Both the position numbers and the translations under genes were made by a program. From Candidatus Nomurabacteria bacterium (lineage in GTDB: Bacteria; Patescibacteriota; Minisyncoccia; Phycocordibacterales; UBA9973): a stretch of 49,718 bases of DNA. Below, in pieces: positions 2,303 to 48,648 of the stretch. The stretch is from positions 1 through 49,718 of the forward strand of contig JAPLXR010000005.1 in NCBI GenBank assembly GCA_026395955.1. Direction: 5' to 3'. Numbering within the stretch: position 1 is the first letter of the stretch; every line of letters starts with the position of its first letter. The notes beneath the pieces were generated by a model. The model made no database searches. It had not been told where the DNA came from and worked only from the letters and a program-made list of their open reading frames with translations.

Positions 2303-2361
2303 AATGTTTACTCTGTATATTTTCTGTGTTATGTTATAAGAAAATCTTTAACATATAGGAA

Positions 2362-2970
2362 ATGAGAAAAAATATAATTATTACTGGATTACCACATTGT
2401 GGTAAATCTACTTTGCTTAAAAAAATTATTTCAGACATTGAAAAAGGAAAGTCCAAACAATCTTCTTTCGGTTTAGTTACAACTGAAATTTTAGAAAAAC
2501 CTCATAGGAGAATTGGTTTTAAAATGGGCTTCATAGAGAATGAACGTAATTCTCGTGCAACTGAAATTATTACACTGAAAGAATGGAAAAACAAACCTGG
2601 TTTGAAAAATATTGGGAGTTATGGAGTAAACTTAAATATTATTGCAGAAATTTGTCAGGCTGTTCATTTGAATTATGAACATTTAGATTTTATACCCAAA
2701 ATTTTATATTTGGATGAAATTGGTCCAATGCAAGTCGATGTTCCCGAATTCCAAAATTTAACTGAAGAATTTTTAGATTCTGAAAAAGTAACCCTGATGA
2801 CAATGGCGAGTTGCTACTATCACAATAGTGAACAACATCCTTTTGTTACAAAATTAAAAAAACGTGAGGATGTTAGGATTATCGAACTATATGATCATAA
2901 CAGGGAAGAAACAGAGGAAGGAATTTTAGAGTTAATTGATAGAATTCAAAAAGAGAAAATAAAAAAATAA
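2362..2970 (+). CDS. NTPase_1/THEP1-like nucleoside triphosphatase
   Basis: Walker A IIITGLPHCGKST, RIGF, and Walker B LYLDEIGPMQ. Confidence 0.75.
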   Translation: MRKNIIITGLPHCGKSTLLKKIISDIEKGKSKQSSFGLVTTEILEKPHRRIGFKMGFIENERNSRATEIITLKEWKNKPGLKNIGSYGVNLNIIAEICQAVHLNYEHLDFIPKILYLDEIGPMQVDVPEFQNLTEEFLDSEKVTLMTMASCYYHNSEQHPFVTKLKKREDVRIIELYDHNREETEEGILELIDRIQKEKIKK

Positions 2971-2974
2971 CACC

Positions 2975-3000
2975 AAAAACGCGTCTATTAACGCGTTTTT
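2975..3000 (+). terminator. intrinsic terminator
   Basis: AAAAACGCGT-ctatta-ACGCGTTTTT hairpin with a T tract. Confidence 0.75.
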
Positions 3001-3052
3001 TATTTTTTGATTAAATTGGTAAATAGGGAATTTATATAGTAATATATTTATT

Positions 3053-3451
3053 ATGAGTTCAGAAAGTAAAAAACATGGTCCAGTGCATCATTTAGGTCAT
3101 TCTTTGAATGAAAATACAGGTAGATTTAATGATGATATTGTTCGGTCAGATAAAGGTGAGAGTACAAATCCAGATGAAATAAAAAAGAAATGGAAAGGTG
3201 AGATTAATGCAAAGTTGAGAACTTTAGAAGAGACACAGGAAAATATGTTGGTTAAATACCAAGTAGTAAAATCTCTTTTAAATAAATTTGCATTAGGAAC
3301 TTTAGATAAAGGTCTTTTAGCTGAAATAGGTCTCTTTATGAAAGAGTTTGATGGGATAGATAAAGATTCTTTAGATTTTGAACCAAGTATGGAGGATTTG
3401 ATAGATGAGATTGAAATCTTTTCTGAAAGATATCTAGAAAAATTTATGTAA
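3053..3451 (+). CDS. hypothetical protein
   Basis: 132-aa ORF with normal composition and no recognised motif. Confidence 0.6.
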   Translation: MSSESKKHGPVHHLGHSLNENTGRFNDDIVRSDKGESTNPDEIKKKWKGEINAKLRTLEETQENMLVKYQVVKSLLNKFALGTLDKGLLAEIGLFMKEFDGIDKDSLDFEPSMEDLIDEIEIFSERYLEKFM

Positions 3452-3526
3452 AAAATAAAAGAGGACTAAAATATTTTTATTGTTTTTTCCTTTAAATATG
3501 TTAAGATTATTATGTTTTTGATACGA

Positions 3527-3597
3527 CGGGCTGTCGTATACCGGTAGTACACGTGTTTTGGGAACACGTTGACTGGGTTCGATTCCCAGCAGCCCGA
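3527..3597 (+). tRNA. tRNA-Pro(TGG)
   Basis: CGGGCTG acceptor pairs with CAGCCCG-A; anticodon arm CGTGT-TTTGGGA-ACACG; T loop GGTTCGATTCC. Confidence 0.95.
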
Positions 3598-3601
3598 ACG
3601 A

Positions 3602-3632
3602 AAAAATAAACAGGTAAAACCTGTTTATTTTT
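3602..3632. terminator. bidirectional intrinsic terminator
   Basis: AAAAATAAACAGGT-aaa-ACCTGTTTATTTTT between convergent tRNA-Pro and the 3635-3892 ORF. Confidence 0.7.
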
Positions 3633-3634
3633 GT

Positions 3635-3892
3635 TTATTTAAATTTTATCTTATTTTCTTCCAAGTATTCGTTCATTGGTTTTCCGTCTACCTTCCAAGC
3701 CTTTTCTTTTTCTGATTGTTCAGCTTGATCTTTTACTTCTTTTGAGAATTTATCCTTATTTTTTAAATAGTAATCTTCAAAATCTTTATATACTGTATCT
3801 TTTGGATGATTAATAATATAAACTTGATATTTATTTAAGGCATAACCCTTTAATGGGTCTTCTAGAAATTCTGAATCTTTTATATTGTCCAT
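3635..3892 (-). CDS. hypothetical protein
   Basis: 85-aa ORF coupled to the upstream ORF (3-bp gap). Confidence 0.55.
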   Translation of the reverse strand: MDNIKDSEFLEDPLKGYALNKYQVYIINHPKDTVYKDFEDYYLKNKDKFSKEVKDQAEQSEKEKAWKVDGKPMNEYLEENKIKFK

Positions 3893-3895
3893 AAT

Positions 3896-4246
3896 TTAAT
3901 TTTCACTAATTATTATTTTTGGATATAATTTTGATTTTGCTCTATTTTGAACAGCATCGAAATCCTCGATTTCTTTGTTTAGTTCTTCTATATGTCTGTT
4001 TGCATAATCAGAAATGAGATCTTCTTTTTTAGCTGGTTTGTCGTTGATCATTATATTTGGTTTGAAGTATTTTTCAGCAAATTTTTTACGTCTTTCTTCT
4101 TGAGTTCCAGTTTGAAGATATGTTATTTTATCGAGCTCTGCATTAGCAACATTTAATTCTGCTGTTTTTTGTATTAGCTCTTCTCTGAGTTTCTCAGTGT
4201 TACTTTTTATTTCTTTTGTTTTATTGAAAATTCCTAATTCAAACAT
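3896..4246 (-). CDS. hypothetical coiled-coil protein
   Basis: Probable ATG at 4246; heptad-like E/K/L-rich sequence. Confidence 0.55.
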   Translation of the reverse strand: MFELGIFNKTKEIKSNTEKLREELIQKTAELNVANAELDKITYLQTGTQEERRKKFAEKYFKPNIMINDKPAKKEDLISDYANRHIEELNKEIEDFDAVQNRAKSKLYPKIIISEN

Positions 4247-4354
4247 GGTTATATTATACACCCTTTCAAATTAAAAGTCAATACTATGCAATATAGATAG
4301 TATTTTGTCAAAATATCTAGCTTTTTATAAATAAAATGCTAATATATAACTATT

Positions 4355-4425
4355 GCGGGATTAGTTTATCGGTAAAACAACAGTTTTCCAAACTGTGGTG
4401 AAGAGTTCGACTCTCTTATCCCGCA
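4355..4425 (+). tRNA. tRNA-Gly(TCC)
   Basis: GCGGGAT acceptor pairs with ATCCCGC-A; anticodon arm ACAGT-TTTCCAA-ACTGT; T loop AGTTCGACT. Confidence 0.95.
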
Positions 4426-4433
4426 CAAATAAA

Positions 4434-4464
4434 AATTCCCCCGACCATTTTGGTCAGGGGAATT
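4434..4464. terminator. terminator hairpin between tRNA-Gly and the sigma gene
   Basis: AATTCCCCCGACCA-ttt-TGGTCAGGGGAATT. Confidence 0.7.
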
Positions 4465-4470
4465 AGATTT

Positions 4471-5343
4471 TTAACCTAAAAATGCTTTTAATAATTTACT
4501 TCGCGAATTATGTCTTAATTTTCTAATAGCTTTTTCTTTTATCTGTCGAACTCTTTCGCGGGTTAAATCAATGTCTTTATGGCTAGCGATTTCGTCTAGT
4601 GTCATAGAATGATTGTATTCACTAAGACCAAAATACATTTTTACTACACTACGCTCTCTTTCTGTTAAGGTTGAAAGGGAACGCTCTATTTCTTTTTTTA
4701 GTGATTCATCTATCAACCCTGCATCTGCTGGTTTTTCGGATGTATTCTCCATTACATCTAATAGAGAATGATTTTCATCGTTAAAGAATGGTGTTTCTAT
4801 TGAAACATGTTTATTAGAAATAAAAATAGCATCTGAAATTTTATCTTCATCCATCTCTAGTATTTCTGATAATTCTTCTGCGCTAGGTTCTCGCTCAAAC
4901 CTTTGTTCTAATTTAGAGAATTCTCTATTTATTTTGTTTATGTTACCAACTTTGTTTAAAGGAAGTCTAACAATACGAGATTGTTCTGCTATTGCTTGTA
5001 GAATTGATTGTCGAATCCACCAAACAGCATAAGAAATAAATTTAAATCCACGTGTCTCATCAAATCTTTTTGCTGCTTTGATAAGACCTAAATTCCCTTC
5101 ATTTATTAAATCCGGAAGACTTAAACCTTGGTTTTGGTACTGTTTTGCAACAGACACTGCAAAACGTAGGTTTGCAGTTGTTAGTCTATGTAGAGCAATG
5201 TCATCTCCTTGTCTTATTTTTATTGCAAGAATCACTTCTTCTTCTGCTGTGATTAAATCTACTCGGCCAATTTCTTGAAGGTATTTATCTAATGAAGCAC
5301 TATCACGATTCGTGATGGATTTGGTAATTTTTAACTGTCTCAT
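4471..5343 (-). CDS. rpoD: RNA polymerase sigma-70 factor, RpoD/SigA family, short Bacteroidota-like type
   Basis: Region 2 ([45 protein letters not shown]) and region 4 ([18 protein letters not shown]). No region 1.1; N-terminus [13 protein letters not shown]. Confidence 0.92.
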
Positions 5344-5431
5344 TTTTAGTGGGTTTTTAAAATAACTTGTTTTTTTGTTCTAACTACAATATAACACATT
5401 TTTATAAAAAAGAAAGGGTTTCAAGTAAGTC

Positions 5432-5472
5432 TTGACTTTACTGATATAATATTATATTATCTTGTTTAGATA
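5432..5472 (+). promoter_or_regulatory. sigma-70 promoter with TGTTTAGATAA motif
   Basis: TTGACT (5432), 17 bp, TATTAT (5455), then TGTTTAGATAA. Confidence 0.7.
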
Positions 5473-5503
5473 ATATTGAAAATTAAATAAAAAAATAAAT
5501 ACC

Positions 5504-6409
5504 ATGGCAAGTAAAGAAATACAAAAAACAAATCAAAATCTAGTAGAAAAAGTAGATTTTAGAATTTTAACACTTAATGATTTATCGAATCCAGTACAAA
5601 TTCAAAGACTCTTCGAAGAGGTTAAAAGAATCAATCCTTTCAAGAAAAGAATAGGATTACCAGAGATAAATATTTTATTAGAAAAAAGGTTAAGAAGATC
5701 AGAAGTGGCAGAAAAAATGTCACAAGCGATACTTTCTGCTGATAATAAAATAGCAAAATTTATTTGGAATATTTCTACACCAAAATTCAAGTATGAAATG
5801 ATTTTACCTGGGGCAGGAGAAGTTAATTTAGATTTAATTAATAAGCTCGACCTTCGGGGTAAGATGGTTTGCAAAGCTTTTTTGAGTCATAAAAATTTAC
5901 CAGTACCAAGGCAAACTGCCTATGCAACAATTTTCGGTGAATATTCTTATGATGATGCTGCAGAGCTTGCTCTAATCTTAGAAGAGCTTTGGAATTCTGG
6001 AGTTTATGGAAAAGTCCTTGTTCAGGAATTCTTTGAATTTATCGATATTAGGGTTTTGTTCCTAATAGGAATTTCAGAAATGGGATCTTTTGTTTCTGAT
6101 TCTTCTGATGATGGAAGGGAGATGTACATAGCTTTGAAAACTGATGATCAATTACCAATTGATTTAAATTTTCTTTGTTGGATGCAACTTCGAATACCTG
6201 AAAAATACAGTAAATTGAGAGAAGAATTACTTAATCCAAAGTATCCAGAAGATAGAAATCTTTTTTGGGAAACGTTTCGTAAACAAAACAAACCGCATCT
6301 TCGTGAAAATAATTTTTTTCCTGAAAAACAAGAAAGATTTAACGAAAGTGTAGTTGAAAAAAATCTGGATGCTTCTATGAAGATTATCGAGAATGGAAGT
6401 GGTGAATAG
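5504..6409 (+). CDS. hypothetical protein with degenerate ATP-grasp-like motifs
   Basis: KMVCKAFLSHKNLPVPR and VLVQEFFEFIDIRVLFL resemble RimK/ATP-grasp segments. Confidence 0.5.
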   Translation: MASKEIQKTNQNLVEKVDFRILTLNDLSNPVQIQRLFEEVKRINPFKKRIGLPEINILLEKRLRRSEVAEKMSQAILSADNKIAKFIWNISTPKFKYEMILPGAGEVNLDLINKLDLRGKMVCKAFLSHKNLPVPRQTAYATIFGEYSYDDAAELALILEELWNSGVYGKVLVQEFFEFIDIRVLFLIGISEMGSFVSDSSDDGREMYIALKTDDQLPIDLNFLCWMQLRIPEKYSKLREELLNPKYPEDRNLFWETFRKQNKPHLRENNFFPEKQERFNESVVEKNLDASMKIIENGSGE

Positions 6410-6468
6410 ATAAATTGCGTATGATAGAAATATCATACGCAAAAAAATAAACTTAAAATTTAAAGAAA

Positions 6469-8022
6469 ATGGAAGAAAATAAAGAATTAAGTGTATTGAG
6501 TGAACAAGCTCTCTTAAATGCTCAGAGTAAAAAAGATTTTCCTGAGGAACAATTTACTAAATTAGCTAATTTGTATTATGCTTTGCTGTTTAAGCAAGCT
6601 CTTAAATCAAGATCTGATGTCAAAGCTAGTGCTCTAAAACAAGAAGCTGTATTGATATGCTTGCTTGGAATGTTTTCCGCCCAATCTTTAGGTAAAGATT
6701 TTCATCAGATTAAAAATACTGATGATTTGATTGGCCTAATTCATGAAGCGACTGGTTTAGAGAAAATAAAAACTTGGTTAAAAAATGAAAAAAAAGATGC
6801 TGAAAAAATATTAAAAACAAGCGGAATTGCTTCTCTTTATGAAGAACTTCTTAAGCTCGTGTTTAATTTTAGAACAAAAGAAATGATCCAGTCTTTGGAT
6901 TGTTTTCGTAAAAATGTTTTAGAAATGTTTGACTGGTTAAAACTAGTTAAAATATTAAATACTAATAATATTCATAGTGGTAACTTTGAAAAGTTTATAT
7001 CTGAATTCCAAAGATTCTTTGTTTGGGATAAAGAAAAGCTTTATAATATGTTTATTATGGGTATAACCATTGATGCGAACAGTTCATTGTTCTCCTTGAA
7101 AGATCTAATAAATTTTTGTCATAAAATACAACAGCCAAACTGGTTTAAAGATTTTGAGAATAAATTAAATAGTTCATTGAGTGGTGATGATGTTGCCTTA
7201 ACAATCTTCAAAGACAGCTCTTTTAATAGAATTGTTAAAAATATTTTACAGCCTAAAAATCAAAATATTGTTTATTTTCTGCGTAAAGTAAATCTCTCTA
7301 AGAGTGACTTTTATATCACTAAAGATTTGGTTAAAATTATTGATCAGTCTTTAGGTCATATTAAAAACAAAATTCAAAAAGAGAAAGAAATTGGATCAAA
7401 AAAAGATTCATTTAAAACAGTGAAGAAACATGTTAGTGCTTTTACTGCAAGATACAGAGCAGAAGATGTTCACAGGATTGTTTTAGAGCGACCATACTTA
7501 GCTACTTGGTTCTCTTATGAAGAAATGATGAGGATTGCAGTTATTGATTTAAAAAATGAAAATCAATTGCAAAATAAACTAGAGGCTGAATACGGTTTGA
7601 GTCCTGAAATGATTGAAATTTTTGGTTTATTGAATACGAAAGAACCAATAGGGGAGATATTATATAAACTAATGAGAGATAAAAAGATATTATCTTTTCA
7701 GTTTAGTTTCTTCTTGGAAAATCGTAAACAAAGACTATTGTTACCTTTAACAAGTGTTCAAAATCATAATTTTTTAAAGGAATTTATGGCAATTGTTGCC
7801 AGAGACATAACCTATAAACAATTTTCTATTTGGTTAGAAGAAATTGAAAAGAAGAATGCTGAAGTTGTTTTAGATAGTATTCCTATTTCAAGGCTTGCTT
7901 TGCATTTATTCCTTCAGCCTGAAGGTAAGGTTTCAAAAAATGTTTTAAAAAGATTAACAAAAGAATCTTGGTTTCAGTATTTAACTCCTGAAATGATAGG
8001 TTCGATAAAAAAAATGGTATAA
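6469..8022 (+). CDS. hypothetical helical protein
   Basis: 517-aa ORF with no recognised motif, followed by a terminator. Confidence 0.65.
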   Translation: MEENKELSVLSEQALLNAQSKKDFPEEQFTKLANLYYALLFKQALKSRSDVKASALKQEAVLICLLGMFSAQSLGKDFHQIKNTDDLIGLIHEATGLEKIKTWLKNEKKDAEKILKTSGIASLYEELLKLVFNFRTKEMIQSLDCFRKNVLEMFDWLKLVKILNTNNIHSGNFEKFISEFQRFFVWDKEKLYNMFIMGITIDANSSLFSLKDLINFCHKIQQPNWFKDFENKLNSSLSGDDVALTIFKDSSFNRIVKNILQPKNQNIVYFLRKVNLSKSDFYITKDLVKIIDQSLGHIKNKIQKEKEIGSKKDSFKTVKKHVSAFTARYRAEDVHRIVLERPYLATWFSYEEMMRIAVIDLKNENQLQNKLEAEYGLSPEMIEIFGLLNTKEPIGEILYKLMRDKKILSFQFSFFLENRKQRLLLPLTSVQNHNFLKEFMAIVARDITYKQFSIWLEEIEKKNAEVVLDSIPISRLALHLFLQPEGKVSKNVLKRLTKESWFQYLTPEMIGSIKKMV

Positions 8023-8033
8023 AAGAGTTAATG

Positions 8034-8109
8034 ATACCCCTGATACAATATCAGGGGTATTTTTTATTAAAAACACAAAAACCCTAGGCTTTTACACCAT
8101 AGGGTTTTT
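8034..8109. terminator. two back-to-back terminators (accessory ORF and hup)
   Basis: ATACCCCTGATA-caa-TATCAGGGGTAT-TTTTT (8034-8065) and AAAAACCCTA...TAGGGTTTTT (8077-8109). Confidence 0.7.
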
Positions 8110-8131
8110 ATACTTTGTCTCGAGACAAATA

Positions 8132-8404
8132 CTATTTAACAGCGTCTTTTAGACCTTTTGCAGCACGGAATTTTGGAACCTTTGTAGCTGCTACTTTAAC
8201 TTGTTCTCCAGTTTTTGGATTACGAGCCATTCTAGCTGCACGAGGCTTTACAGAGAAAATACCGAAGCCAGCGATTGAAACTTCATTTCCTTTTTTCATT
8301 GAAGAAACGATAGCATCAAACATCCCACTTACGATTTCTTCTGCTGCAACTTTAGTACCTCCCATTTTTCCATGTACGAATTCGATTAAATCTTGTTTGT
8401 TCAT
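8132..8404 (-). CDS. hup: HU family DNA-binding protein
   Basis: MNKQDLI, VSIAGFGIF, ARMARNPKTGE, PKFRAAKGLKDAVK. Confidence 0.95.
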   Translation of the reverse strand: MNKQDLIEFVHGKMGGTKVAAEEIVSGMFDAIVSSMKKGNEVSIAGFGIFSVKPRAARMARNPKTGEQVKVAATKVPKFRAAKGLKDAVK

Positions 8405-8588
8405 AGTTTTTTGATATTTGTTTATAATACTTTCGACCTTTTGTCTATAAATTACTTACCTATACATTATATATCAAGGGTTTTTTTAGGCAATAGCATT
8501 ACAAAGAGTTTATTTTTTTGACTTTTTATTGAAAAATCTGTAAAATAAAATGTAGAAAATAAGAATTGAACTTTAAAAAACTTTTATT

Positions 8589-9194
8589 ATGAAAAAAACA
8601 GTTTTAATTCTGTGCCTATTGATTGGTATTTTAGGTGCATTTGCTAAAAAAAGAAATGTTTTAGATATTCTTAAAAATAGAAAAGAAAAAAAGGCACATA
8701 TAGTAGATATTAAAAACGTAGATTGGAAGAGAAAAAATGATTACGTTTATCAGATTGAAAAATTAGAATATACAGAATCCGTTCCTGTTTGGAGGAGAAA
8801 AGAAAAAGATACTATTGGTAAACCATCTAAGGTTTATAATTACATTGTAGACACTAATGCATCACACAATCCAGCATTTTTTGCTAGAGCATTTAGTCAC
8901 AAGGACAATACTGTGACCTTAGATAGATATGAAATAGTAACGAAATCTTTATTTTTAGAAGATAGTGTTTGTTATCATTATATTGTTGCTCGTTTTTATT
9001 CAAAAGAAAACAAGTTTATTTTCTTTGAGTACAATGGACCGGCACATATTGAAGCTAAATTCTTTGTTCATACATCTTTCATATCTTTCATTTTTGGAAT
9101 GATCGTTTATATTGTAATCGTTATTAGAGAATATGATATAGCTAGAGCGAAAAGAATGTCAGAATATTTTTATGTAACAAAAAGCCCTTCGTAA
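8589..9194 (+). CDS. hypothetical protein with signal peptide and C-terminal TM helix
   Basis: N-terminal MKKTVLILCLLIGILGAFA; hydrophobic FISFIFGMIVYIVIVI. Own promoter (TTGACT 8518, TAAAAT 8541) and terminator (9180-9206). Confidence 0.65.
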   Translation: MKKTVLILCLLIGILGAFAKKRNVLDILKNRKEKKAHIVDIKNVDWKRKNDYVYQIEKLEYTESVPVWRRKEKDTIGKPSKVYNYIVDTNASHNPAFFARAFSHKDNTVTLDRYEIVTKSLFLEDSVCYHYIVARFYSKENKFIFFEYNGPAHIEAKFFVHTSFISFIFGMIVYIVIVIREYDIARAKRMSEYFYVTKSPS

Positions 9195-9223
9195 TGAAGG
9201 GCTTTTATGCTTTTATTTAATTT

Positions 9224-39648: not shown

Positions 39649-39948
39649 ATGAAAAAAATAGCAAAGTCCTTTAAATTTCTTTGGTGCCCTCTCCAGAAAT
39701 TTTATAAGTTTTTTCACAAAGTGAAATCAAAAAATAGAGGAATTAAGTATGTAACTATTATTAATACTGGTCTAAAAAATGAACTTGGAGAAGTTATTTT
39801 TGAAACTGGTGAAAGTGGAGTTACATATATGACTGAACCAAAAGTAAAAAAAGCAGAAAAACAGTTAGGAGATTTTAAAAATTTTCTTAAGAGGGTACAA
39901 AAAATACCATCAAGAAATGATCCTTTTTGGTTCGAGCGATTTAATTAA
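39649..39948 (+). CDS. hypothetical basic protein (accessory cassette)
   Basis: 99 aa. Promoter TTGACT (39594), 17 bp, TACAGT; weak terminator at 39953-39978. Confidence 0.55.
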   Translation: MKKIAKSFKFLWCPLQKFYKFFHKVKSKNRGIKYVTIINTGLKNELGEVIFETGESGVTYMTEPKVKKAEKQLGDFKNFLKRVQKIPSRNDPFWFERFN

Positions 39949-40010
39949 AATTAAAAGATCTGAATAAGGTCTTTTTTTGTTTCTAAATATAATAATGTTA
40001 CAATTTAGAA

Positions 40011-40484
40011 ATGTCAGAAAAAGTAATAATTTATACAGATGGGGCGGCGAGGGGGAATCCGGGTCCTGCGGGATGGGGAGCTATAGTTATTGATGGTAAA
40101 AAAGTACACGAGCTCGGTGGAAGGTCAGACAAGGCTACGAATAATCAAATGGAACTTTCAGCACCTATTGGCGGACTAAAATATTTAAAGAAACATAAAA
40201 TGTCAAAGGGCACCTTTGACATTGAAATATTTTCAGATTCAAAATATGTGATTTTGGGAATTACTGAATGGATTTTTAATTGGCAGAAGAATAATTGGCG
40301 AAATGCTGCGAAGAAGCCAGTGGTGAATCAAGAACTTTGGGAAGAGCTTTTTGAACTCACAAAACTTTTCAAAATAAAATGGACTTATGTGAAAGGTCAC
40401 GCAGGTGTTGAATGGAACGAACGCGCAGATGTGATAGCGACAAGTTTTGCCGATGATGAACCTATTAAATTAATTAGTCACTAG
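40011..40484 (+). CDS. rnhA: ribonuclease HI
   Basis: IYTDGAARGNPGPAGWG, TNNQMEL, SDSKYV, WTYVKGHAG..WNERAD. Confidence 0.95.
   Translation: MSEKVIIYTDGAARGNPGPAGWGAIVIDGKKVHELGGRSDKATNNQMELSAPIGGLKYLKKHKMSKGTFDIEIFSDSKYVILGITEWIFNWQKNNWRNAAKKPVVNQELWEELFELTKLFKIKWTYVKGHAGVEWNERADVIATSFADDEPIKLISH
40199..40223. repeat. 25-bp palindrome in-frame in rnhA
   Basis: AATGTCAAAGG-gca-CCTTTGACATT, encoding MSKGTFDI. Confidence 0.65.
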
Positions 40485-40487
40485 ATT

Positions 40488-41858: not shown

Positions 41859-41910
41859 CTCGCTCCGCTCAAACAGTCCTCGCTGTCAAAAAAATTGTTT
41901 CCACCCATTT
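41823..41910. repeat. ~88-bp structured palindromic element, copy 2 (comEC stop / sod 3' end)
   Basis: AAATGG...CCATTT terminal stem; core CTGCGTAACTCGCTCCGCTCAAACAGTCCTCG. Confidence 0.8.
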
Positions 41911-42519
41911 TTATTTTTTAGCGTTCAAAAAATTTTTTTCAATTACTTCCCAATTTAGATTTTCAAAAAAAGCTTCTACGTATTTTTTCTTTTCAGAAGT
42001 AGGGTAGTCATATACATATGCATGTTCCCACATATCGATAGCGAGTATCATGTCGCAACCATTGAGCTGACCGAGGTGTTGTTCGTCTACCCAGCTGGCT
42101 AGAAGTTTATCTTCTTTTTTGTCATACCAAAGCACAGCCCAGCCGATACCACGAGTCATAGCAATATTTTTGAATCCCATCATAAATATTTCAAGTGACA
42201 TACAATCGAGATTTATTTTTTTAGCTAGTTCACTTTCAGGATTGAGAGCTTTTGCTCCACCAGAAAGGGAATTGAAATACACTTCATGATTTCGCATACC
42301 ATTGTATTCGAAAGAAAAACGGCGGAAGAGTTCGGCAATGAGATAAGAATTATCTTCACCATTTTTAAACATCCCTTCAGACAAACTACTCATTTTTTCT
42401 ATATTACTATTTACGTTTTTTACATAGCCACTGTAAAGTTTTAAATGTTCTTCGATATTTTTCGCACCGATACCTTTTAATTCACCGATATTAAATTTTT
42501 GTTCTTCAAATTTTGTCAT
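41911..42519 (-). CDS. sod: Fe/Mn superoxide dismutase
   Basis: EEHLKLY, NHEVYF, GIGWA and IDMWEHAY metal-ligand motifs. Confidence 0.9.
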   Translation of the reverse strand: MTKFEEQKFNIGELKGIGAKNIEEHLKLYSGYVKNVNSNIEKMSSLSEGMFKNGEDNSYLIAELFRRFSFEYNGMRNHEVYFNSLSGGAKALNPESELAKKINLDCMSLEIFMMGFKNIAMTRGIGWAVLWYDKKEDKLLASWVDEQHLGQLNGCDMILAIDMWEHAYVYDYPTSEKKKYVEAFFENLNWEVIEKNFLNAKK

Positions 42520-42532
42520 AATGTTTCATTTC

Positions 42533-42619
42533 GCGAGATAATAATTTTCTCAGGTCCTCGGATCTCGCCTCCGGTCTTAGGACCATCGGCGCCAGACCAT
42601 TTGAAAATTATTATCTCGC
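42533..42619. repeat. 87-bp element with 17-bp perfect terminal inverted repeats
   Basis: GCGAGATAATAATTTTC ... GAAAATTATTATCTCGC around a GC-rich core with an internal GGTC-ttag-GACC hairpin. Confidence 0.75.
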
Positions 42620-42648
42620 TTCATTTATTAATATGGTAAAATTATAGC

Positions 42649-43497
42649 ATGTTTCGGAAGTATTTTTTAATTATTTTCGTTGCCTTTCTGCTGATATTTA
42701 ATATTTTTCTAATTTATACAGAATATCAAAATAGCCATAGAATGCTGACTTTTGCAGCCTTAGACATAGGTCAAGGGGATGGACTATTTATCGAGTCGCC
42801 GAGCGGTGTACAAATGCTCGTGGACGGTGGGCCGATACATAAGATAATGGCTCCACTAGCAAAAGTAATGCCACTTTACGATAAACATATCGATGCAATT
42901 ATGATTACGAATCCTGATGCGGACCATATCGGTGGCTTTATCGATATTTTGAAAAATTATGATGTGGGCTATATTATCGAGCCGGGGACTTTTAATCCTT
43001 CGAAAACTTATGCGACAGTTGAGCAACTCGTGGCTGAAAAGCATGTGAAGAAAATAATCGCTCGAAGAGGAATGAAATTAAATCTAGGCTCTGGTGCGTA
43101 TGTAAATATTTTATTTCCAGATCGAGATGTTTCTACCTGGACGACGAATGACGGCTCGATAATTGCGCGACTTAGTTATGGAAATAATTCTGTAATGCTG
43201 ACGGGGGATGCGACTCAGTCTACTGAAGGGATTGTGTTAAAAGACAATCCAGCCCGACTTTTAAAATCTGATATTTTAAAAGTCGGGCATCACGGCTCTC
43301 GCACCTCAACTTCTTCCTCATTTGTAAAAGCCGTCGATCCTACATATGCCGTCATATCTGTCGGTAAAGATAATAAATATGGACATCCACATAAAGAAAC
43401 CCTTGATACTTTAAATTCTTTTAATATCAAAACCCTTCGCACCGACTTGCTAGGTACAATAATTTTTAAAGGGGATGGTATTGACTTTAAACTATAA
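42649..43497 (+). CDS. ComEC-type metallo-beta-lactamase-fold protein (stand-alone C-terminal domain)
   Basis: LDIGQGD, TNPDADHIGG, LTGD, LKVGHHGSRTS, NKYGHPH. Confidence 0.9.
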   Translation: MFRKYFLIIFVAFLLIFNIFLIYTEYQNSHRMLTFAALDIGQGDGLFIESPSGVQMLVDGGPIHKIMAPLAKVMPLYDKHIDAIMITNPDADHIGGFIDILKNYDVGYIIEPGTFNPSKTYATVEQLVAEKHVKKIIARRGMKLNLGSGAYVNILFPDRDVSTWTTNDGSIIARLSYGNNSVMLTGDATQSTEGIVLKDNPARLLKSDILKVGHHGSRTSTSSSFVKAVDPTYAVISVGKDNKYGHPHKETLDTLNSFNIKTLRTDLLGTIIFKGDGIDFKL

Positions 43498-43558
43498 TAA
43501 ATGTATTATCCAGTTTAGATAAATTCAATAATAAACACGGGCGAATGCTCTTTAAAAA
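43481..43558 (+). promoter_or_regulatory. sigma-70 promoter plus near-consensus boxA
   Basis: TTGACT (43481), 17 bp, TATTAT, then AGTTTAGATAA, then TGCTCTTTAAAAA (43546-43558; boxA consensus TGCTCTTTAACA). Confidence 0.65.
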
Positions 43559-43567
43559 CCAAAAAAT

Positions 43568-44413
43568 ATGAAAAAATTATTTATGATGCTTTTAGCATTT
43601 TCATTTTCTTTTAATGTTTCAGTTGCTGCACAAATAAAATCTCTGTATGAGATGCTTGGTAAAGATTTACCTGCTTATGGAACACCAGCCCGTACTGCTA
43701 TGGCGGTAGAGGCTGGAATAACTTCTGGTTATATAGGAAGTTATGATCAAAACCAAAAGATTGCAGAATTTTTGCAGTCTAAAAAGGTTACAGTAAAAAA
43801 TACTGAAATTGAAATGGTAAAAAATTACTGTTTAAAACTTGAAAAAAGTGTAGTTGTTCCTAACGTAAAAGGAGAACAAAATATTAAAAAGTTACTTTCT
43901 ACTAATGTAAAAGAATCTATAGCTAATGCAGAAATAAATTCTATAGATGTTCGTATTAATGTTGATGATTATCAATCTATGCAATGTGACAGTCTTTTAA
44001 TGTTAAGTATTTCTTCTGTTGTTGCAAAAAGAACTTCAGATGAAGAAATACTTAAGGCTGCTGGAAATAAATTTTTTACTGATATTAGTGTAAGGCAAAC
44101 TTTAATATATTTATTAGGTAAACAGCCACATGGTGAAAAGGGGATATTGGCTACGAATAGCAATAGCAATATTTTTTATGTAAAAAAAGTAGATGGAAGT
44201 ATTTATTATATTTCCCTTGGATGGTCTACTGATTATGGTGGATGGTATTTGAATTATCATGATTGGATAACTCCTACTGGCAGTGAATGGGAATATAGAG
44301 GGGACAAGGTTTTTTCTTTTGTCTATAATCCTAAAAATCCGTTAACCTCATTTGAGGATTCGGAAATGCCGAGCAAGAAAAAATTCATAAATTCAATTTT
44401 AGCGAATAAATAA
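43568..44413 (+). CDS. secreted protein with a DUF3597-like N-terminal module and an aromatic-rich C-terminal domain
   Basis: Signal peptide; RTAMAVEAGITSGYIGSYDQNQKIAEFL; QPHGEKGILATNSNSNIFYV...W...GGW...EW...KVFS. Confidence 0.6.
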   Translation: MKKLFMMLLAFSFSFNVSVAAQIKSLYEMLGKDLPAYGTPARTAMAVEAGITSGYIGSYDQNQKIAEFLQSKKVTVKNTEIEMVKNYCLKLEKSVVVPNVKGEQNIKKLLSTNVKESIANAEINSIDVRINVDDYQSMQCDSLLMLSISSVVAKRTSDEEILKAAGNKFFTDISVRQTLIYLLGKQPHGEKGILATNSNSNIFYVKKVDGSIYYISLGWSTDYGGWYLNYHDWITPTGSEWEYRGDKVFSFVYNPKNPLTSFEDSEMPSKKKFINSILANK

Positions 44414-44434
44414 GTTTATTATAGATATAAACAA

Positions 44435-44464
44435 CAAAGCCCATCTCAATGAGATGGGCTTTTG
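44435..44464. terminator. bidirectional terminator
   Basis: AAAGCCCATCTCA-a-TGAGATGGGCTTT. Confidence 0.75.
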
Positions 44465-44469
44465 AAGTT

Positions 44470-44715
44470 TTATTTAATGATTCCAGCTTTCTTTAATGTT
44501 GCGTATGCTCCATTCTTTGTTAGTGTTCTCATTCCTTGAGTAGAGATTTCTAGATTGAAAGTCTTACCGAGTTCAGGAACAAAAACCTTCTTCTTTTGAA
44601 GATTTGGGTATTTGCGAACCATACCAGTAGGATTGAACTTTGTCGCACGAGTGCGGTTAGAGTATCCTCCTGCCATAATTGAACCTTTTTTAGTTATTGG
44701 ACAGATTTTTGCCAT
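44470..44715 (-). CDS. rpmB: 50S ribosomal protein L28
   Basis: MAKICPITKK...RKYPNLQKKKVF...ISTQGMRTL. Confidence 0.92.
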   Translation of the reverse strand: MAKICPITKKGSIMAGGYSNRTRATKFNPTGMVRKYPNLQKKKVFVPELGKTFNLEISTQGMRTLTKNGAYATLKKAGIIK

Positions 44716-44775
44716 ATATTTATTGTTTCTATATTTCTATAAAAGTATTTTTATGTTATCATAACAATGTATTAA

Positions 44776-45420
44776 ATGCAACTTATGGACACAACAAACA
44801 CAATTTTTTATATAGTGATCCTAATAATGTCAGTGATTATTCACGAAGTTTCTCATGGTTTTATGGCAGAGAAATTCGGAGATAAAACTGCCCGATTTGC
44901 AGGCAGACTCACACTCAATCCTATTCCTCATCTCGACTTATTTGGTTCTATAATTTTACCAGTGCTTCTGATCATTACTCATGCAGGATTTCTATTTGGT
45001 TGGGCAAAGCCTGTACCATATAATCCAAATAATCTGACTAATCGCAAGTGGGGGACGCTCGCAGTAGCGAGTGCCGGGATAATTGCGAATTTATTTATAG
45101 CAATTATTTTTGGAGCCTTTATTCGTCTCGGAGTTTATCTTGATTATACTAATCCATCTTTCTATTTTATATGTGGGCTTATTTCTTTTGTGAATTTGCT
45201 TCTAGCCTTTTTCAACCTTATGCCTTTTCCGCCTCTTGATGGTTCAAAAATACTTTTTTCATTTTTACCAGCACGCTTCGCTCGTTTTGAAGATATATTA
45301 GAAAGATATTCAATTATTATTTTCTTACTATTTATCTTTTTTATCTGGGACCATATTTTCCCTGGTATCTTTTATATTTACCATTTATTGGTAGGTTCTG
45401 CTCCAGTATTTTTTGGTTAA
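44776..45420 (+). CDS. site-2 protease (M50 family)
   Basis: IIHEVSHG, GRLTLNP, FGWAKPVP, FNLMPFPPLDGSKI. Confidence 0.92.
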   Translation: MQLMDTTNTIFYIVILIMSVIIHEVSHGFMAEKFGDKTARFAGRLTLNPIPHLDLFGSIILPVLLIITHAGFLFGWAKPVPYNPNNLTNRKWGTLAVASAGIIANLFIAIIFGAFIRLGVYLDYTNPSFYFICGLISFVNLLLAFFNLMPFPPLDGSKILFSFLPARFARFEDILERYSIIIFLLFIFFIWDHIFPGIFYIYHLLVGSAPVFFG

Positions 45421-45519
45421 ATATGTTTGCTGATACTCAGCACTTGCATTTTATCTATTAATATATTATATTGTCTGAAGTAGCCGATAGGGCTATTTTA
45501 TTTACTAAATACACATTAA

Positions 45520-45942
45520 ATGCCAACAGTTAACCAATTAATTAAAAAGAACAGAAAAACAACCCGCACAAAGTCAAAGGCGGTTGCTTTAGCTCGTGGA
45601 TTTAACATCTTGAAAAACAAGCCAGTTTTCTACCCAGCTCCTTTCAAAAGAGGTGTTTGTACAAAAGTTACTACAACAACTCCAAAGAAACCTAACTCAG
45701 CTCTCCGTAAGATTGCCCGCGTACGTTTAACAAATGGAATGGAAGTAACAGCTTATATCCCAGGAGAAGGACACAATTTACAAGAACACTCAGTTGTCAT
45801 GCTCCGTGGAGGACGTGTGAAGGACTTGATCGGAGTACGTTACCACATAGTTCGTGGTGTTCTCGATACACAAGGTGTTGAAAAGAGAAGACAAGGACGT
45901 TCATTATACGGAAACAAGAAACCAAAAGCAGCTAAAAAATAA
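45520..45942 (+). CDS. rpsL: 30S ribosomal protein S12
   Basis: [40 protein letters not shown]. Confidence 0.98.
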
Positions 45943-45952
45943 TTAAACATAT

Positions 45953-46423
45953 ATGCGAAGAAAAGTAACAAATAGAAATATAGTAGAACCAGATTTTCTT
46001 TACAACTCTACAAAGTTGGAAAAGTTTATCAACTACATCATGTGGGATGGTAAAAAAGAAACAGCACGTAAAGTGATGTATGCTGCTTTTGATATAGTCA
46101 AAGAAAAAACTGGTAATCCAAATCCTCTAGAAGTTTTTGATCTTGCTATGAAAAATGCAGGACCACTTACAGAAGTTCGCTCAAAGCGTATCGGAGGTGC
46201 AAACTATCAAGTTCCTCGTGAAGTTTCTCCTGCACGTCGCCTAGCTCTCGCTATGAGATGGATTCGTGATGCTGCTCGTAATAAGAAAGGCCAACCAATG
46301 GCTACAAAGCTCGCAGATGAAATAATCGCAGCTTCAAAAAACGAAGGTTCAGCTATCAAGAAAAGAGAAGATACTCACAAGATGGCAGAATCAAACAAAG
46401 CTTTTGCTCACTTCGCTTGGTAA
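45953..46423 (+). CDS. rpsG: 30S ribosomal protein S7
   Basis: MWDGKK, EVRSKRIGGANYQVP, HKMAESNKAFAHF. Confidence 0.98.
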   Translation: MRRKVTNRNIVEPDFLYNSTKLEKFINYIMWDGKKETARKVMYAAFDIVKEKTGNPNPLEVFDLAMKNAGPLTEVRSKRIGGANYQVPREVSPARRLALAMRWIRDAARNKKGQPMATKLADEIIAASKNEGSAIKKREDTHKMAESNKAFAHFAW

Positions 46424-46433
46424 TACAAATTCT

Positions 46434-46456
46434 AAAGTCCCCGAAAGGGGATTTTT
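46434..46456 (+). terminator. terminator after rpsG
   Basis: GTCCCC-gaaa-GGGGAT followed by a T tract. Confidence 0.75.
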
Positions 46457-46472
46457 GTTATATATAATATAT

Positions 46473-46634
46473 TTGACTTTTATTTTACTATATGTTAATC
46501 TTATTTTGAAACACTTAGTGTATAAAATATTTTTAAAAAAGAAAGAATAACTAGAAATCACGCCATGGTTTTTAGAACCCCTGAAGTACAAGACTTCGCT
46601 ACTTTATCGTCTTGTATGGAGGGGGATTTTTTTT
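46473..46634 (+). ncRNA. candidate small RNA / ORF-less cassette
   Basis: TTGACT (46473), 17 bp, TAATCT promoter; ends in hairpin CCCCT..TACAAGAC...GTCTTGTA..AGGGG plus T8; no credible ORF. Confidence 0.35.
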
Positions 46635-46688
46635 GACAATTTAATATATATTTTGTAACTTTAAGTAAATAAACAAATTGTTCTAAAA

Positions 46689-47180
46689 ATGAAAAAATTA
46701 GTTATTATACAGTCTAGTAATCTCGATAAAAAAAGATCTGCTAGATTAGAAAGAGAGCCAGAAGTTTATAGTATAAAAAATATTCAGAATTTAAAAAAAG
46801 AATTAAAAAGACCTTATTTTGAATTGAATAATATAAATCTATACTATGGAGATTTTTTAGGAAATAGAATTGTAGCAAATGTTATTTCCCATGATTGGAA
46901 TATTAAAAAGATTCCAGATATTAGATTAAAATACTTTAATGAATATGTTGATTTTAAAGTAGAGAAGGTAATCAATTTCATTGAAGAAATTAAGAATAAT
47001 TCAGATACTGTCATGTTGGTACTAGATTCTAGTCATGCAACAGAAACAGTTGAAGCTTGTTCTATTAAATTTTTGAATAAAAAATTTAATAGAAAACAAT
47101 TTCAATTAAAAAATGAACAAGCTATAATCTTTGATTTAGAAAAAAATACGTTCAAACATATTGTTCCAAATAATCAATAA
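46689..47180 (+). CDS. degenerate histidine-phosphatase (SixA-like) fold protein
   Basis: MKKLVIIQSS where RHG is expected; DTVMLV; LKNEQAIIFDLE C-terminus. Promoter TTGACA (46633), 17 bp, TAACTT; terminator at 47238-47275. Confidence 0.5.
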   Translation: MKKLVIIQSSNLDKKRSARLEREPEVYSIKNIQNLKKELKRPYFELNNINLYYGDFLGNRIVANVISHDWNIKKIPDIRLKYFNEYVDFKVEKVINFIEEIKNNSDTVMLVLDSSHATETVEACSIKFLNKKFNRKQFQLKNEQAIIFDLEKNTFKHIVPNNQ

Positions 47181-47342
47181 TACTTTTATTGGCTTAGTTG
47201 GGTGTCATGGCCCGTTGTTTAGTTTGTGATTAAGCCGAAATCCCTCATCAGAGTATTCTGTTTGAGGGATTTTTTATTTGACTTATATAGCTATATTTTG
47301 TATTGTTTAGGTAAATATAAACAGTTCTAAAAAATAAATAGA

Positions 47343-47702
47343 ATGAAAAAATACTCAACAACACCGCTAATTATCTTAAAACTTGAGAAAGATAATAAAG
47401 ATAATCCAACTGGTATGCAATTACGTATATGGTCATTAGATAATGGCACTACTATAGTAGTCCGTTTATTAGAACACGATGAAAGTGCAACTCAAGCCTT
47501 GTGGAATAAAAAAACCAATGGAGAAGTTAACGATTTTATCCTTGGTTTTCTTAAAAAACAAAAGATTATTAAGAAAATCTCAAACTGGCACTATGATAAT
47601 GATATTTATGAAATAGTTCAAGAGCAAGATGAGTTTGAAGAAGCAGATGAATGTGTATATTTCTGCTGGAAAGTAAAATCAGAATTGATTAGTAAGTTTT
47701 AA
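47343..47702 (+). CDS. hypothetical protein (accessory cassette A)
   Basis: 119-aa ORF with promoter at 47278-47306 and terminator at 47710-47737. Confidence 0.6.
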   Translation: MKKYSTTPLIILKLEKDNKDNPTGMQLRIWSLDNGTTIVVRLLEHDESATQALWNKKTNGEVNDFILGFLKKQKIIKKISNWHYDNDIYEIVQEQDEFEEADECVYFCWKVKSELISKF

Positions 47703-47786
47703 ATTATAAAAGCCTCATAGAAATAAGAGGCTTTTTTATTTGCAAAATTGAGGTACTTTTATTTATTGTTTAACATAATTATCCAC

Positions 47787-47806
47787 ATCTACGCTATAGC
47801 GTAGAT
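47787..47806. repeat. 20-bp perfect palindrome upstream of the Cas2-like gene
   Basis: ATCTACGCTATAGCGTAGAT, abutting TTATCCACA at 47779-47787. Confidence 0.9.
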
Positions 47807-47829
47807 TATAAATATAATATAATTAATAT

Positions 47830-48204
47830 ATGGTTCTAAATAATAAAAAGAAATACAAAGGGGTTTCTGTAAACATCTTTGGATTACCAAATTTAGATAA
47901 TTCTAAAAAAGAAAATACTGAAAGTAAAAAAATTCCAAAAAGAATTTATCTCGATTCTTTTACTGCTGATTTTAAAGAGAATGCACCAAAGAATTTAATT
48001 CTTATGTATGATATTCCAGATAATATGAAAAAGCATCGGGATTGGTTTCGTCGTCAATTAAAAAGTTTTGGTTTTATAATGGTTCAAAAGAGTGTATGGG
48101 TCGGCCCATCACCATTACCAAAAGACTTTTTAGAATATTTGAAAGAAATTAAAATAGGGGACAAGTTTAAAACTTTTAAATTAGCTAAAGCTTATAAATT
48201 CTAA
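47830..48204 (+). CDS. PaaX/Cas2-like domain protein lacking the wHTH
   Basis: Paralog of 39023-39505: YKGVSVNIFGLP, PKNLILMYDIPD, RDWFRRQLKSFGFIMVQKSVWVGPSPLPKDFLEYLK, KTFKLAKAY. Confidence 0.8.
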   Translation: MVLNNKKKYKGVSVNIFGLPNLDNSKKENTESKKIPKRIYLDSFTADFKENAPKNLILMYDIPDNMKKHRDWFRRQLKSFGFIMVQKSVWVGPSPLPKDFLEYLKEIKIGDKFKTFKLAKAYKF

Positions 48205-48226
48205 TTAATTATTACTAATATCTTCA

Positions 48227-48246
48227 ATCTACGCTATAGCGTAGAT
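48227..48246. repeat. 20-bp perfect palindrome downstream of the Cas2-like gene
   Basis: ATCTACGCTATAGCGTAGAT, identical to 47787-47806. Confidence 0.9.
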
Positions 48247-48327
48247 GAAATTTTGCTGTTTGACTTATCTCAGTATATTTTGTATTGTTTGGATAAATAT
48301 AAACAGTTCTAAAAAATTATCTTAAAA

Positions 48328-48522
48328 ATGAAAAGTGATAGTAGTAAGGTATCAAATACCTATATTGAAGAAAAACCGCTTGATGGAGATAGTGCCTTTT
48401 GGCAAAGATACGAAGAAGTAAATGAAAACTGCAAAAATCGGTCAAAAGAAAAAGCAAAAAAAGAAATTGAAAAAGTTCAAAGGAGACATGAGTTGGACTA
48501 TCGTATGGAAGAAGAATTTTAA
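48328..48522 (+). CDS. small hypothetical protein (accessory cassette B)
   Basis: 64-aa ORF with promoter at 48260-48288 and terminator at 48530-48556. Confidence 0.55.
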   Translation: MKSDSSKVSNTYIEEKPLDGDSAFWQRYEEVNENCKNRSKEKAKKEIEKVQRRHELDYRMEEEF

Positions 48523-48648
48523 ACGTTTTAAGCCTCGTAGAAATACAGGGCTTTTTATTTGCAAAATTGAAAGAAATGTTTTATATTAAAGGTATATAGG
48601 GCTTAGGCCTTTTTATTTTATTAATAAGTAATTATAAACAAATATTAT

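Follow-up and report, generated by a model that had tools for sequence, protein, structure and literature searches.

Why should accessory genes scattered among the core genes of a very small bacterial genome each carry a near-consensus promoter and, in most cases, a terminator of their own? Here, we address this question for contig JAPLXR010000005.1 of the Candidatus Nomurabacteria assembly GCA_026395955.1, which we analyzed over its entire length of 49.7 kb (49,718 nucleotides [nt]; hereafter the window, or contig C1). The genome to which it belongs (G000), that of a freshwater bacterium, comprises 699 kb in 10 contigs, with a GC content of 33% and a completeness of 94.9%; based on Pfam, the gene content of the window is typical of an ultra-small bacterium of the Patescibacteria or candidate phyla radiation (CPR). 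A first-pass annotation had described the accessory genes as cassettes, each with a promoter, an open reading frame (ORF), and a terminator in a standardized frame, and had suggested that they represent either a co-regulated regulon or the product of an undescribed capture mechanism. We found, as a new quantitative point, that the best promoters in the genome mark its least conserved genes. We suggest, with a probability of roughly 70%, that the cassettes are the flexible gene pool of the species, i.e., lineage-specific, mostly single genes that are autonomous transcription units in slots between core units. The description of self-contained units that are enriched for orphan genes (genes without a Pfam match) and have discrete boundaries therefore stands; the regulon under an extra sigma factor does not, and neither does the dedicated capture mechanism, for which no integrase, common end-repeat, or target duplication was seen among the window ORFs and at the junctions examined. 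The common frame is ordinary promoter and terminator grammar and not a dedicated platform.

Near-consensus promoters at poorly conserved genes

The window contains 15 matches to the strict motif TTGACW-N17-TANNNT compared with a mean of 2.38 (standard deviation 1.5, largest 7) in 100 shuffles. They include all 11 promoter sites of the first-pass annotation (5432, 8518, 11635, 15839, 37180 on the minus strand, 39594, 43481, 46473, 46633, 47278, and 48260) and four further sites on the minus strand at 4281, 14452, 19184, and 40206. The site at 4281 is in front of a leaderless orphan, and the one at 40206, inside rnhA, is probably a chance match. The remaining two belong to core genes: the strict promoter of tig (14424-14452, minus strand) is leaderless, with 6 nt (AAAATT) from the −10 box to the ATG, and a pattern match identifies a strict copy upstream of nusA (19156-19184, minus strand). 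Because tig and nusA carry the strict motif, we conclude that it is a general housekeeping promoter. Genome-wide, the motif occurs 78 times versus 26 in a reversed-sequence control, and 63 of the 78 copies are intergenic; it exceeds the control in 41 of 41 genomes of the genus, with counts per genome of 15 to 78. A looser scan (9 of 12 matches) was non-discriminating (76 found versus 57.7 in shuffles). The promoter logo, TTGACTTTT plus a TG-extended −10 box (TGnTAnnnT), is alike in genes with and without a Pfam match.

The central comparison is between orphan and conserved genes throughout the genome. Among 731 ORFs from a simple custom ORF caller, 298 had an upstream spacer of 70 nt or more; after removal of three spurious window ORFs, we classed the remaining first-in-unit genes by Pfam at E<=1e-5 as Pfam-positive (180) or Pfam-less, i.e., orphan (116). 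The strict motif is not equally frequent in the two classes but commoner at orphans: it lies upstream of 42 of the 116 Pfam-less genes versus 12 of the 180 Pfam-positive genes (Fisher p=2.6e-10). The same comparison outside the window gave 32/100 versus 11/165, a relaxed pattern gave 58/116 versus 30/180, and a score of at least 10 of the 12 consensus positions gave 60/116 versus 37/180, with a coding-sequence background of 10/296. The direction of the score-based enrichment was constant across three spacer-length and three protein-length strata. When genes were classed by conservation alone, the strict motif was present at 45 of 155 non-conserved and 8 of 134 conserved genes (p=2e-7). Similarly, a terminator follows 70 of 116 orphans versus 70 of 180 Pfam-positive genes (p=3.5e-4). 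In the window, most units end in a hairpin terminator, as previously described: those with promoters at 5432 (past the second gene, at 8022), 8518, 11635, 15839, 37180 (a weak one), 39594, 46633, 47278, and 48260 do so based on a finder for hairpins plus T-runs or a terminator scan. The unit at 43481 has a strong hairpin at 44436-44462, and that at 46473 has a hairpin with a T-run at its 3' end in the RNA fold.

Shine-Dalgarno sites are nearly absent from G000 (27 of 730 genes), and orphans do not differ from core genes genome-wide in their usage. A −10 box is located 5 to 8 nt before the ATG of 288 of 729 genes (~40%) versus 114 of 728 in a shifted control. These two observations argue that leaderless transcription is common. 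We considered leaderless use as a full explanation of the promoter enrichment and rejected it, as the classes differ only slightly (72/180 Pfam-positive versus 35/116 Pfam-less, p=0.11); near-consensus promoters with a leader are found at 27 of 116 orphans versus 10 of 180 Pfam-positive genes. Paralogy was likewise rejected as the source of common promoters, with only one related orphan-orphan pair among 296 first-in-unit proteins.

The first-pass annotation also reported a motif downstream of five promoters. Three of these copies, at 5464, 15870, and 43513, match GTTTAGATAA exactly and begin 3 to 4 nt past the −10 box; the whole genome has six copies. The two "variants" at 47305 and 48287 do not belong with them: they overlap the last two −10 bases, are out of register by ~5 nt, and are duplicates of one another (66 nt, 86% identical). 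Searched as a bare 10-mer with one mismatch, GTTTAGATAA is not enriched in the window (16 versus 10.1 expected). Among 88 aligned promoters, T is found at position 6 (64%) and A at position 7 (68%) past the −10 box. Because a pyrimidine-purine step at these positions is the expected start site, the motif spans the start of transcription. Its shorter form TTTAGATAA (up to one mismatch) is present 3 to 4 nt past the −10 box at 6 of the 88 promoters versus 0.6 to 0.8 expected, and all six precede Pfam-less genes. Separately, we noticed a second leader class, in which a consensus promoter is followed by a leader of ~90 to 160 nt beginning with ...TAGTTAAGGTTnTTTGAAAAAAG before unrelated genes (C3 50826, 61686, and 85285; C7 12210; C8 5622; and C10 17193 and 18143).

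The start-site motif and an accessory sigma factor together suggest a regulon, in which the sigma factor or one common regulator would drive the orphans via the promoter and GTTTAGATAA. The gene in question (4471-5343, minus strand), inside the variable island at 2362-8022, encodes an RpoD-like protein of 290 amino acids with regions 1.2, 2, 3, and 4 based on Pfam and NCBIfam. The "foreign sigma" of the first-pass annotation proved to be an additional RpoD-like sigma factor with a patchy distribution: it is 39% identical to the longer sigma factor of G000 (on C7) and to that of the closest relative (G017; 656 kb, nearly all of which was compared; S7 protein 89% identical), and 39 to 41% identical to the primary sigma factor of every genome of the genus. 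The extra sigma factor is absent from G017; its best other match is in G031 (59%), and short extra sigma factors are also present in G040, G035, and G046. This accessory distribution would fit a regulon, as would the position of G000 as the genome with the most strict motifs among the 41 and the occurrence of TTTAGATAA at exclusively Pfam-less genes. However, the motif is not distinct from the housekeeping consensus and stands before tig and nusA, and the start-site motif is found at only 6 of 88 promoters. More importantly, strict-motif counts across the 41 genomes do not track the short extra sigma factor: G034 (72) and G041 (67) are motif-rich without it, and G031 (52), G040 (54), G035 (42), and G046 (37) are unremarkable despite having it. 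Therefore, an extra-sigma regulon does not fit, and the features of an alternative-sigma regulon are lacking in these respects. We consider this explanation very unlikely.

Variable slots between conserved neighbors

The cassette description would also fail if the boundaries were blurred in relatives. They are discrete: the units are insertions or deletions between conserved neighbors. None of six relatives is collinear with the whole window, and the rpmB-M50-rpsL-rpsG-fusA block alone is kept in place. However, window 8115-43497 is collinear, in inverted orientation, with G017 C1 29282-56966, and that G017 block has no homolog of the cassettes at 8589, 11701-13319, 15903, 36585, 39023-39948, and 43568 or of the gene for a superoxide dismutase (SOD). 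The spacers differ correspondingly in length, with 1040 nt in G000 versus 46 nt in G017 between recJ and rnhA, 791 versus 60 nt between comEC and the gene for a metallo-beta-lactamase-fold (MBL) protein, and 809 versus 140 nt at the slot of the 8518 cassette. Genome-wide, a G017 homolog is present for 118 of 180 Pfam-positive genes, 19 of 84 other orphans, and 1 of 32 strongly promoted orphans. Among 274 conserved neighbor pairs in the two genomes, 187 are empty in both, 40 are filled in G000 only, 12 are filled in G017 only, and 35 hold different genes; in the same order, the share of pairs with the strict motif is 2/187, 11/40, 0/12, and 15/35.

Two slots illustrate this variability over a wider range of relatives. 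In 14 relatives, the rpsG/fusA spacer measures 9 to 61 nt in six, 118 to 188 nt in two, and 0.5 to 2 kb with unrelated small ORFs in six. In G000 it spans 2.2 kb, in which there are four ORFs and an RNA-like unit, and the cargo differs in seven genomes. A PaaX_M homolog is among the fillings in relatives. Based on six-frame translations only, the slot in G018 and G005 holds small ORF pairs resembling RelE/ParE-type and HicAB-type toxin-antitoxin modules. The second slot, recJ/HIT, was compared at 30 loci of the genus including that of G000; it measures 17 to 147 nt in 24 and is filled in six. It is empty in the nearest HIT relatives of G000, and no relative has a homolog of its G000 occupant (ORF 37118-36585). 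In four of the six filled loci, a TTGAC promoter starts 36 to 39 nt from the recJ ATG. Public metagenomes provide additional junctions: contigs of run X4 join 46424 to 48646 via 4 to 7 other letters, and a ~90%-identical contig of run X6 has the SOD gene but carries ~247 nt in place of window 43392-44461, without the 43568-44413 unit. A contig of run X6 also joins 30343 to 30820 via 4 other letters, and the gene for a protein of 155 amino acids after pilC (30355-30822) may be missing in a related organism. The search with window 39000-48700 matched no RNA data set.

Discrete boundaries, independently reused slots, different cargo at rpsG/fusA in seven genomes, the recurring distance to recJ, and one promoter-leader and terminator frame with different ORF bodies (see below) might also be the marks of an undescribed mechanism dedicated to gene capture, either integron-like or site-specific, that fills a standard promoter-terminator frame. 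Like integron cassettes, the units are small, mostly single-ORF, and variable in cargo, and several stand in a row at one site (rpsG/fusA). However, in agreement with the first-pass annotation, a Pfam scan of the 51 window ORFs revealed no recombinase or integrase domain, including the IntI-type tyrosine recombinase of integrons. Repeat searches found no repeat common to the cassette ends and no attC-like imperfect palindrome common to their 3' ends, but only ordinary terminators and palindromes private to each PaaX_M gene. The two junctions that were read in both empty and filled form show no target duplication, and each unit has its own −35/−10 pair, unlike integron cassettes with their common Pc promoter. 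The frame copied in G000 is found in 0 of 60 other genomes of the genus. Because 36 to 39 nt corresponds to the footprint of a leaderless recJ promoter, we infer that the distance to recJ reflects a packing constraint, i.e., selection on geometry, and not targeting. Altogether, we give a dedicated capture mechanism very little credence.

A different explanation dispenses with gain and loss: the orphans would be old resident genes for highly expressed surface or host-contact proteins that have evolved beyond homology detection. Four observations are in line with this idea. An N-terminal hydrophobic segment is present in 9 of 32 strongly promoted orphans; the gene at 14755-15639 (294 amino acids) has a positional partner in G017 with 21% identity; and in a comparison of slot-partner proteins, pilin-like pairs in common slots retained weak similarity (z=4.6 to 5.7). 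Finally, the composition of the orphans is native. The GC content at third codon positions (GC3) is 0.214 to 0.235 in orphan classes versus 0.230 in Pfam-positive genes, 32 of 42 strict-motif orphans follow the order GC1>GC2>GC3, and purines occupy 66% of first codon positions, as in core genes; a foreign base composition of the cargo was excluded on these grounds. However, many slots are empty in relatives, with 9 to 60 nt between the flanking genes and no diverged gene inside. Moreover, slot partners differ in length, and 6 of 11 pairs lack similarity (z from −1.5 to 0.1), and the ~90%-identical contig lacks one cassette outright. We consider it unlikely that the orphans are old residents.

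Several points weigh against the flexible-gene-pool reading, which we nevertheless prefer. First, judging from the pilin-like pairs, some "non-conserved" genes in common slots appear to be fast-diverging positional orthologs and not gains. Second, the association is weaker in G017 (14/159 versus 6/124, p=0.25; by score, 22/159 versus 8/124, p=0.05), and G000 has the highest strict-motif count of the 41 genomes (78, followed by 72 and 67), which together argue that the strength of the effect may be partly species-specific. Third, a "strong promoter" here denotes a match to the consensus only, and the simple ORF caller made at least one call on the wrong strand (8115-8414). Fourth, the orphan protein of 435 amino acids encoded at 15903-17210 matches only itself in 5.8 billion protein clusters, and 300 other genomes of the order contain no match; for this gene, very fast divergence or on-the-spot origin is therefore a better fit than import from a shared pool. 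With these reservations, the best reading is that the units are moron-like autonomous accessory units that turn over in fixed slots between core genes.

Units of the window, a copied frame, and PaaX_M genes

The unit with the promoter at 5432-5460 (5432-8060, plus strand) has GTTTAGATAA at 5464-5473, two orphan ORFs (5504-6409, 301 amino acids; 6469-8022, 517 amino acids), and a terminator after 8022. Neither ORF has a homolog in G017 or matches a Pfam, PHROGs, NCBIfam, or PADLOC family, and an Atlas search with the ORF at 5504-6409 gave only scores <0.9 and TM <0.5. We noticed that the surrounding variable island (2362-8022; 5.7 kb), which is absent from G017, contains an NTPase gene, tRNA-Pro, tRNA-Gly, the extra sigma factor gene, and five orphan ORFs, and we saw no integrase in it. 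At gathering thresholds, Rfam found only the 4 tRNAs in the window and nothing credible in 7950-8620.

The next cassette (8518-9225, plus strand; pattern and terminator finder) has its promoter at 8518-8546 and an orphan ORF at 8589-9194 (201 amino acids, with an N-terminal hydrophobic segment), and it shares a hairpin with the convergent rny gene. In the neighboring 8115-8414 segment, the caller took the plus strand, although the gene that is conserved there is probably ORF 8132-8404 on the minus strand; it is 80% identical to G017 56644-56961 and located downstream of rny, so that cassette 8589-9194 sits between rny and this ORF. Two units (11635-13361, plus strand) are flanked by clpP and tig, from which they differ in strand. 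The first has a promoter at 11635-11663, a gene for the N-terminal half of PurH (11701-12504), and a terminator; the second encodes a HAD hydrolase (12633-13319) and has a terminator in common with tig (Pfam, NCBIfam). Residues 67-260 of the PurH half match profile positions 5-199 of 510; it is a stand-alone N-terminal (MGS/IMP-cyclohydrolase) half with an extra hydrophobic N-terminus. Neither gene has a homolog in G017, where the slot holds an unrelated ORF of 191 amino acids with its own TTGACA promoter. Farther along, the cassette at 15839-17254 (plus strand; pattern and terminator finder) comprises a promoter (15839-15867), GTTTAGATAA at 15870-15879, the orphan ORF 15903-17210, and a bidirectional terminator.

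In the recJ/HIT slot, the unit on the minus strand (36575-37180; pattern and scan) has a promoter at 37180-37152, an ORF for 177 amino acids at 37118-36585, and a hairpin at 36575-36599. Its product has a UVR motif and a BFN_dom match that falls below threshold (E=1.1e-5; 25.6 bits versus a cut-off of 27). This gene was previously labeled DUF151-like, a label that we keep as weak. Among the other cargo labels, NTPase (PF03266), PurH half, and HAD were confirmed, whereas "ATP-grasp-like" and "SixA-like" were not, with 0 Pfam families at E<=0.01. Other collections add little: none of the 47 orphans searched has a PHROGs match (E<=1e-3), 0 of 15 match NCBIfam, and PADLOC gave one match only (E=9e-4) for 44 Pfam-less ORFs. 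Between comEC and the MBL-fold gene, the Fe/Mn SOD gene (41911-42519, minus strand; Pfam) is a single-gene indel. Between the SOD and MBL-fold genes we noticed a GC-rich nested palindrome (42536-42615) within this AT-rich genome; a ~90%-identical contig of run X6 has 19 other letters in its place, and similar elements of the GGTCCTCGG type occur in the rpsG/fusA and recJ/HIT spacers of relatives.

The cassette at 43481-44462 (plus strand; pattern and scan) has a promoter at 43481-43509, the −35 box of which overlaps the end of the upstream gene, followed by GTTTAGATAA at 43513-43522, an orphan ORF at 43568-44413 (281 amino acids), and the hairpin at 44436-44462. Read by eye, the hydrophobic N-terminus of the product looks signal-peptide-like. 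This ORF has two relatives in the 5.8 billion protein clusters and one paralog on C8; in the same clusters, the sole named relative of one orphan comes from a Candidatus Nomurabacteria assembly. Directly after rpsG, a candidate small RNA (46473-46634, plus strand) has a promoter at 46473-46501, ~127 nt without a long ORF, and the hairpin and T-run described above; its predicted fold is stronger than 200 of 200 shuffles (z=−3.7), and it matches no Rfam family. At the far end of the slot, fusA is cut by the contig break at 49716: its N-terminal part ends C1 and its C-terminal part ends C8 (15932-16786), so that C1 and C8 probably abut. Elsewhere in G000 (C2 16224-17746), a bAvd-like gene and a reverse transcriptase gene in divergent orientation likely represent a diversity-generating retroelement based on Pfam.

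Three further units of the rpsG/fusA slot, all on the plus strand, have a promoter-leader in common. The cassette at 47278-47751 (pattern and repeat search) consists of a promoter-leader frame (47270-47335), an orphan ORF (47343-47702, 119 amino acids), and a terminator plus TTGCAA-type promoter tail (47710-47751). In the cassette at 48252-48570 (pattern and repeat search), which lies just upstream of fusA, a second frame (48252-48317) precedes an orphan ORF (48328-48522, 64 amino acids) and a terminator with a TTGCAA tail. The two units agree over ~85 nt that span the promoter, the leader, and the start codon (86% identical), their ORF bodies are unalignable, and their terminators with the TTGCAA tail are 84 to 92% alike in the repeat search, although MAFFT left the terminators unaligned. 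The frame, TTGACTTAT-N13-GTATTGT-N5-TAAATATAAAC, is found at 47278, 48260, and C7 20892 (there in front of the ORF at 20988-21491), and the pattern search of the 60 other genomes gave no copy. A more diverged copy forms the promoter of the cassette at 46633-47275 (promoter 46633-46661, orphan ORF 46689-47180 of 163 amino acids, terminator), making a total of three to four copies before unrelated ORFs. The "standardized frame" around captured genes thus holds for this one promoter-leader; otherwise, the frames consist of generic sigma-70 promoters and intrinsic terminators. The copied frame with different cargo is local and recent, and this is the sole sense in which a standard frame exists.

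Two units in the window contain a gene that matches PF20803 (PaaX_M), each flanked by two private palindromes. The first PaaX_M/Cas2-fold gene (39505-39023, 160 amino acids; E=3.6e-13) lies in a minus-strand unit (38989-39576) between 50-nt imperfect palindromes at 38989-39038 and 39527-39576, the two copies being 86% identical; its TTAACA-17-TATAAT promoter (39540-39512) overlaps a palindrome. The second (47830-48204, plus strand, 124 amino acids; E=3.6e-14; unit 47787-48246) is flanked by two identical 20-bp perfect palindromes at 47787-47806 and 48227-48246, which are the only two copies in G000. In each case, a cassette promoter follows closely: the −35 box is 17 nt past the palindrome end for the cassette at 39594-39985 (plus strand; promoter 39594-39622, orphan ORF 39649-39948 of 99 amino acids, terminator; pattern and terminator finder) and 13 nt for that at 48260, and the corresponding distance is 11 nt on C7. 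The C7 paralog and the G017 ortholog are also palindrome-flanked, the latter being 60% identical and in the same slot as 47830-48204; no flanking palindrome was found at the fourth PaaX_M copy of G000 (C9). Judging by position alone, the PaaX/Cas2-fold protein probably binds the flanking palindromes, represses its own gene, and controls the neighboring cassette promoter. The match to PF20803 is shared with PaaX-type repressors; in contrast to these, the window proteins are much shorter (124 to 160 amino acids) and lack the C-terminal PaaX domain, and DNA binding is putative.

The copied frame and the palindromes suggest a more far-reaching possibility, in which the promoter-leader-terminator frames themselves would be the unit of innovation. 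They would be copied within the genome, serving as homology arms for swaps of ORF bodies or as seeds for new ORFs, and the newest units would be gated by private PaaX/Cas2-fold repressors. We regard this as quite unlikely; if true, ultra-small bacteria could capture genes, or give rise to new ones, by copying frames and without a recombinase.

Relation to known accessory genes and significance

Returning to the flexible gene pool, we picture a unit as a sigma-70 promoter close to the consensus (TTGACW, 17 nt, often TG, TAnnnT), an AT-rich leader of 30 to 60 nt that lacks a Shine-Dalgarno site, an ORF, and lastly an intrinsic terminator, which the convergent neighbor often uses as well. Slot content would turn over fast between species. 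A gene arriving or arising between core units would work, and spare its neighbors, only with its own start and stop signals. Core genes may be less marked, as many lie inside operons and ~40% of all genes have a leaderless-type −10 box. Turnover would most likely involve the uptake of DNA and its homologous recombination within conserved flanks. ComEC, type IV pilus genes, DprA, and RecA are encoded; based on Pfam, ComEC, T2SSE/F, and pilins are in the window and DprA and RecA in the genome.

In flexible genomic islets, or hot spots, the accessory genes vary while their positions between syntenic core genes stay fixed. The units studied here resemble them in having fixed slots with variable content, conserved flanks, and no mobility genes inside; they differ in being mostly single genes and in having a near-consensus promoter about five times more commonly than core genes. 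Phage morons are independent transcription units that horizontal transfer distributes among phage genomes (PMC3594210). Similar to morons, the units have their own promoter and terminator around one or a few ORFs (a strict promoter at 11/11 sites, hairpins after most), sit between genes that are direct neighbors in relatives, and carry unrelated cargo that is patchy between close genomes. Unlike morons, they are found in a cellular chromosome between core genes (rpsG/fusA, clpP/tig, recJ/rnhA), have no match among the phage families of PHROGs, and are native and not deviant in base composition. Our search of the literature, with most subscription journals outside its coverage, found nothing on Patescibacteria that deals with promoters or with accessory genes resembling cassettes. 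We conclude that the pattern is real, statistically strong, and, as far as the evidence goes, ordinary in mechanism, and that it does not reveal a new class of mobile element.

Patescibacteria have tiny genomes with few recognizable mobile elements, and their gene regulation is almost unstudied. In this setting, about one-third of the conserved neighbor pairs (87 of 274) differ in intervening content from the nearest sequenced species. The promoter signature may be used to find flexible genes, which probably face the host or phages, in CPR bacteria that are uncultivated. Genetic tools for these organisms may in the future draw on the units as a source of candidate strong promoters and terminators. 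Model bacteria commonly silence genes that they have newly acquired; our findings raise the question of why, in this organism, the newest DNA should be the best promoted.

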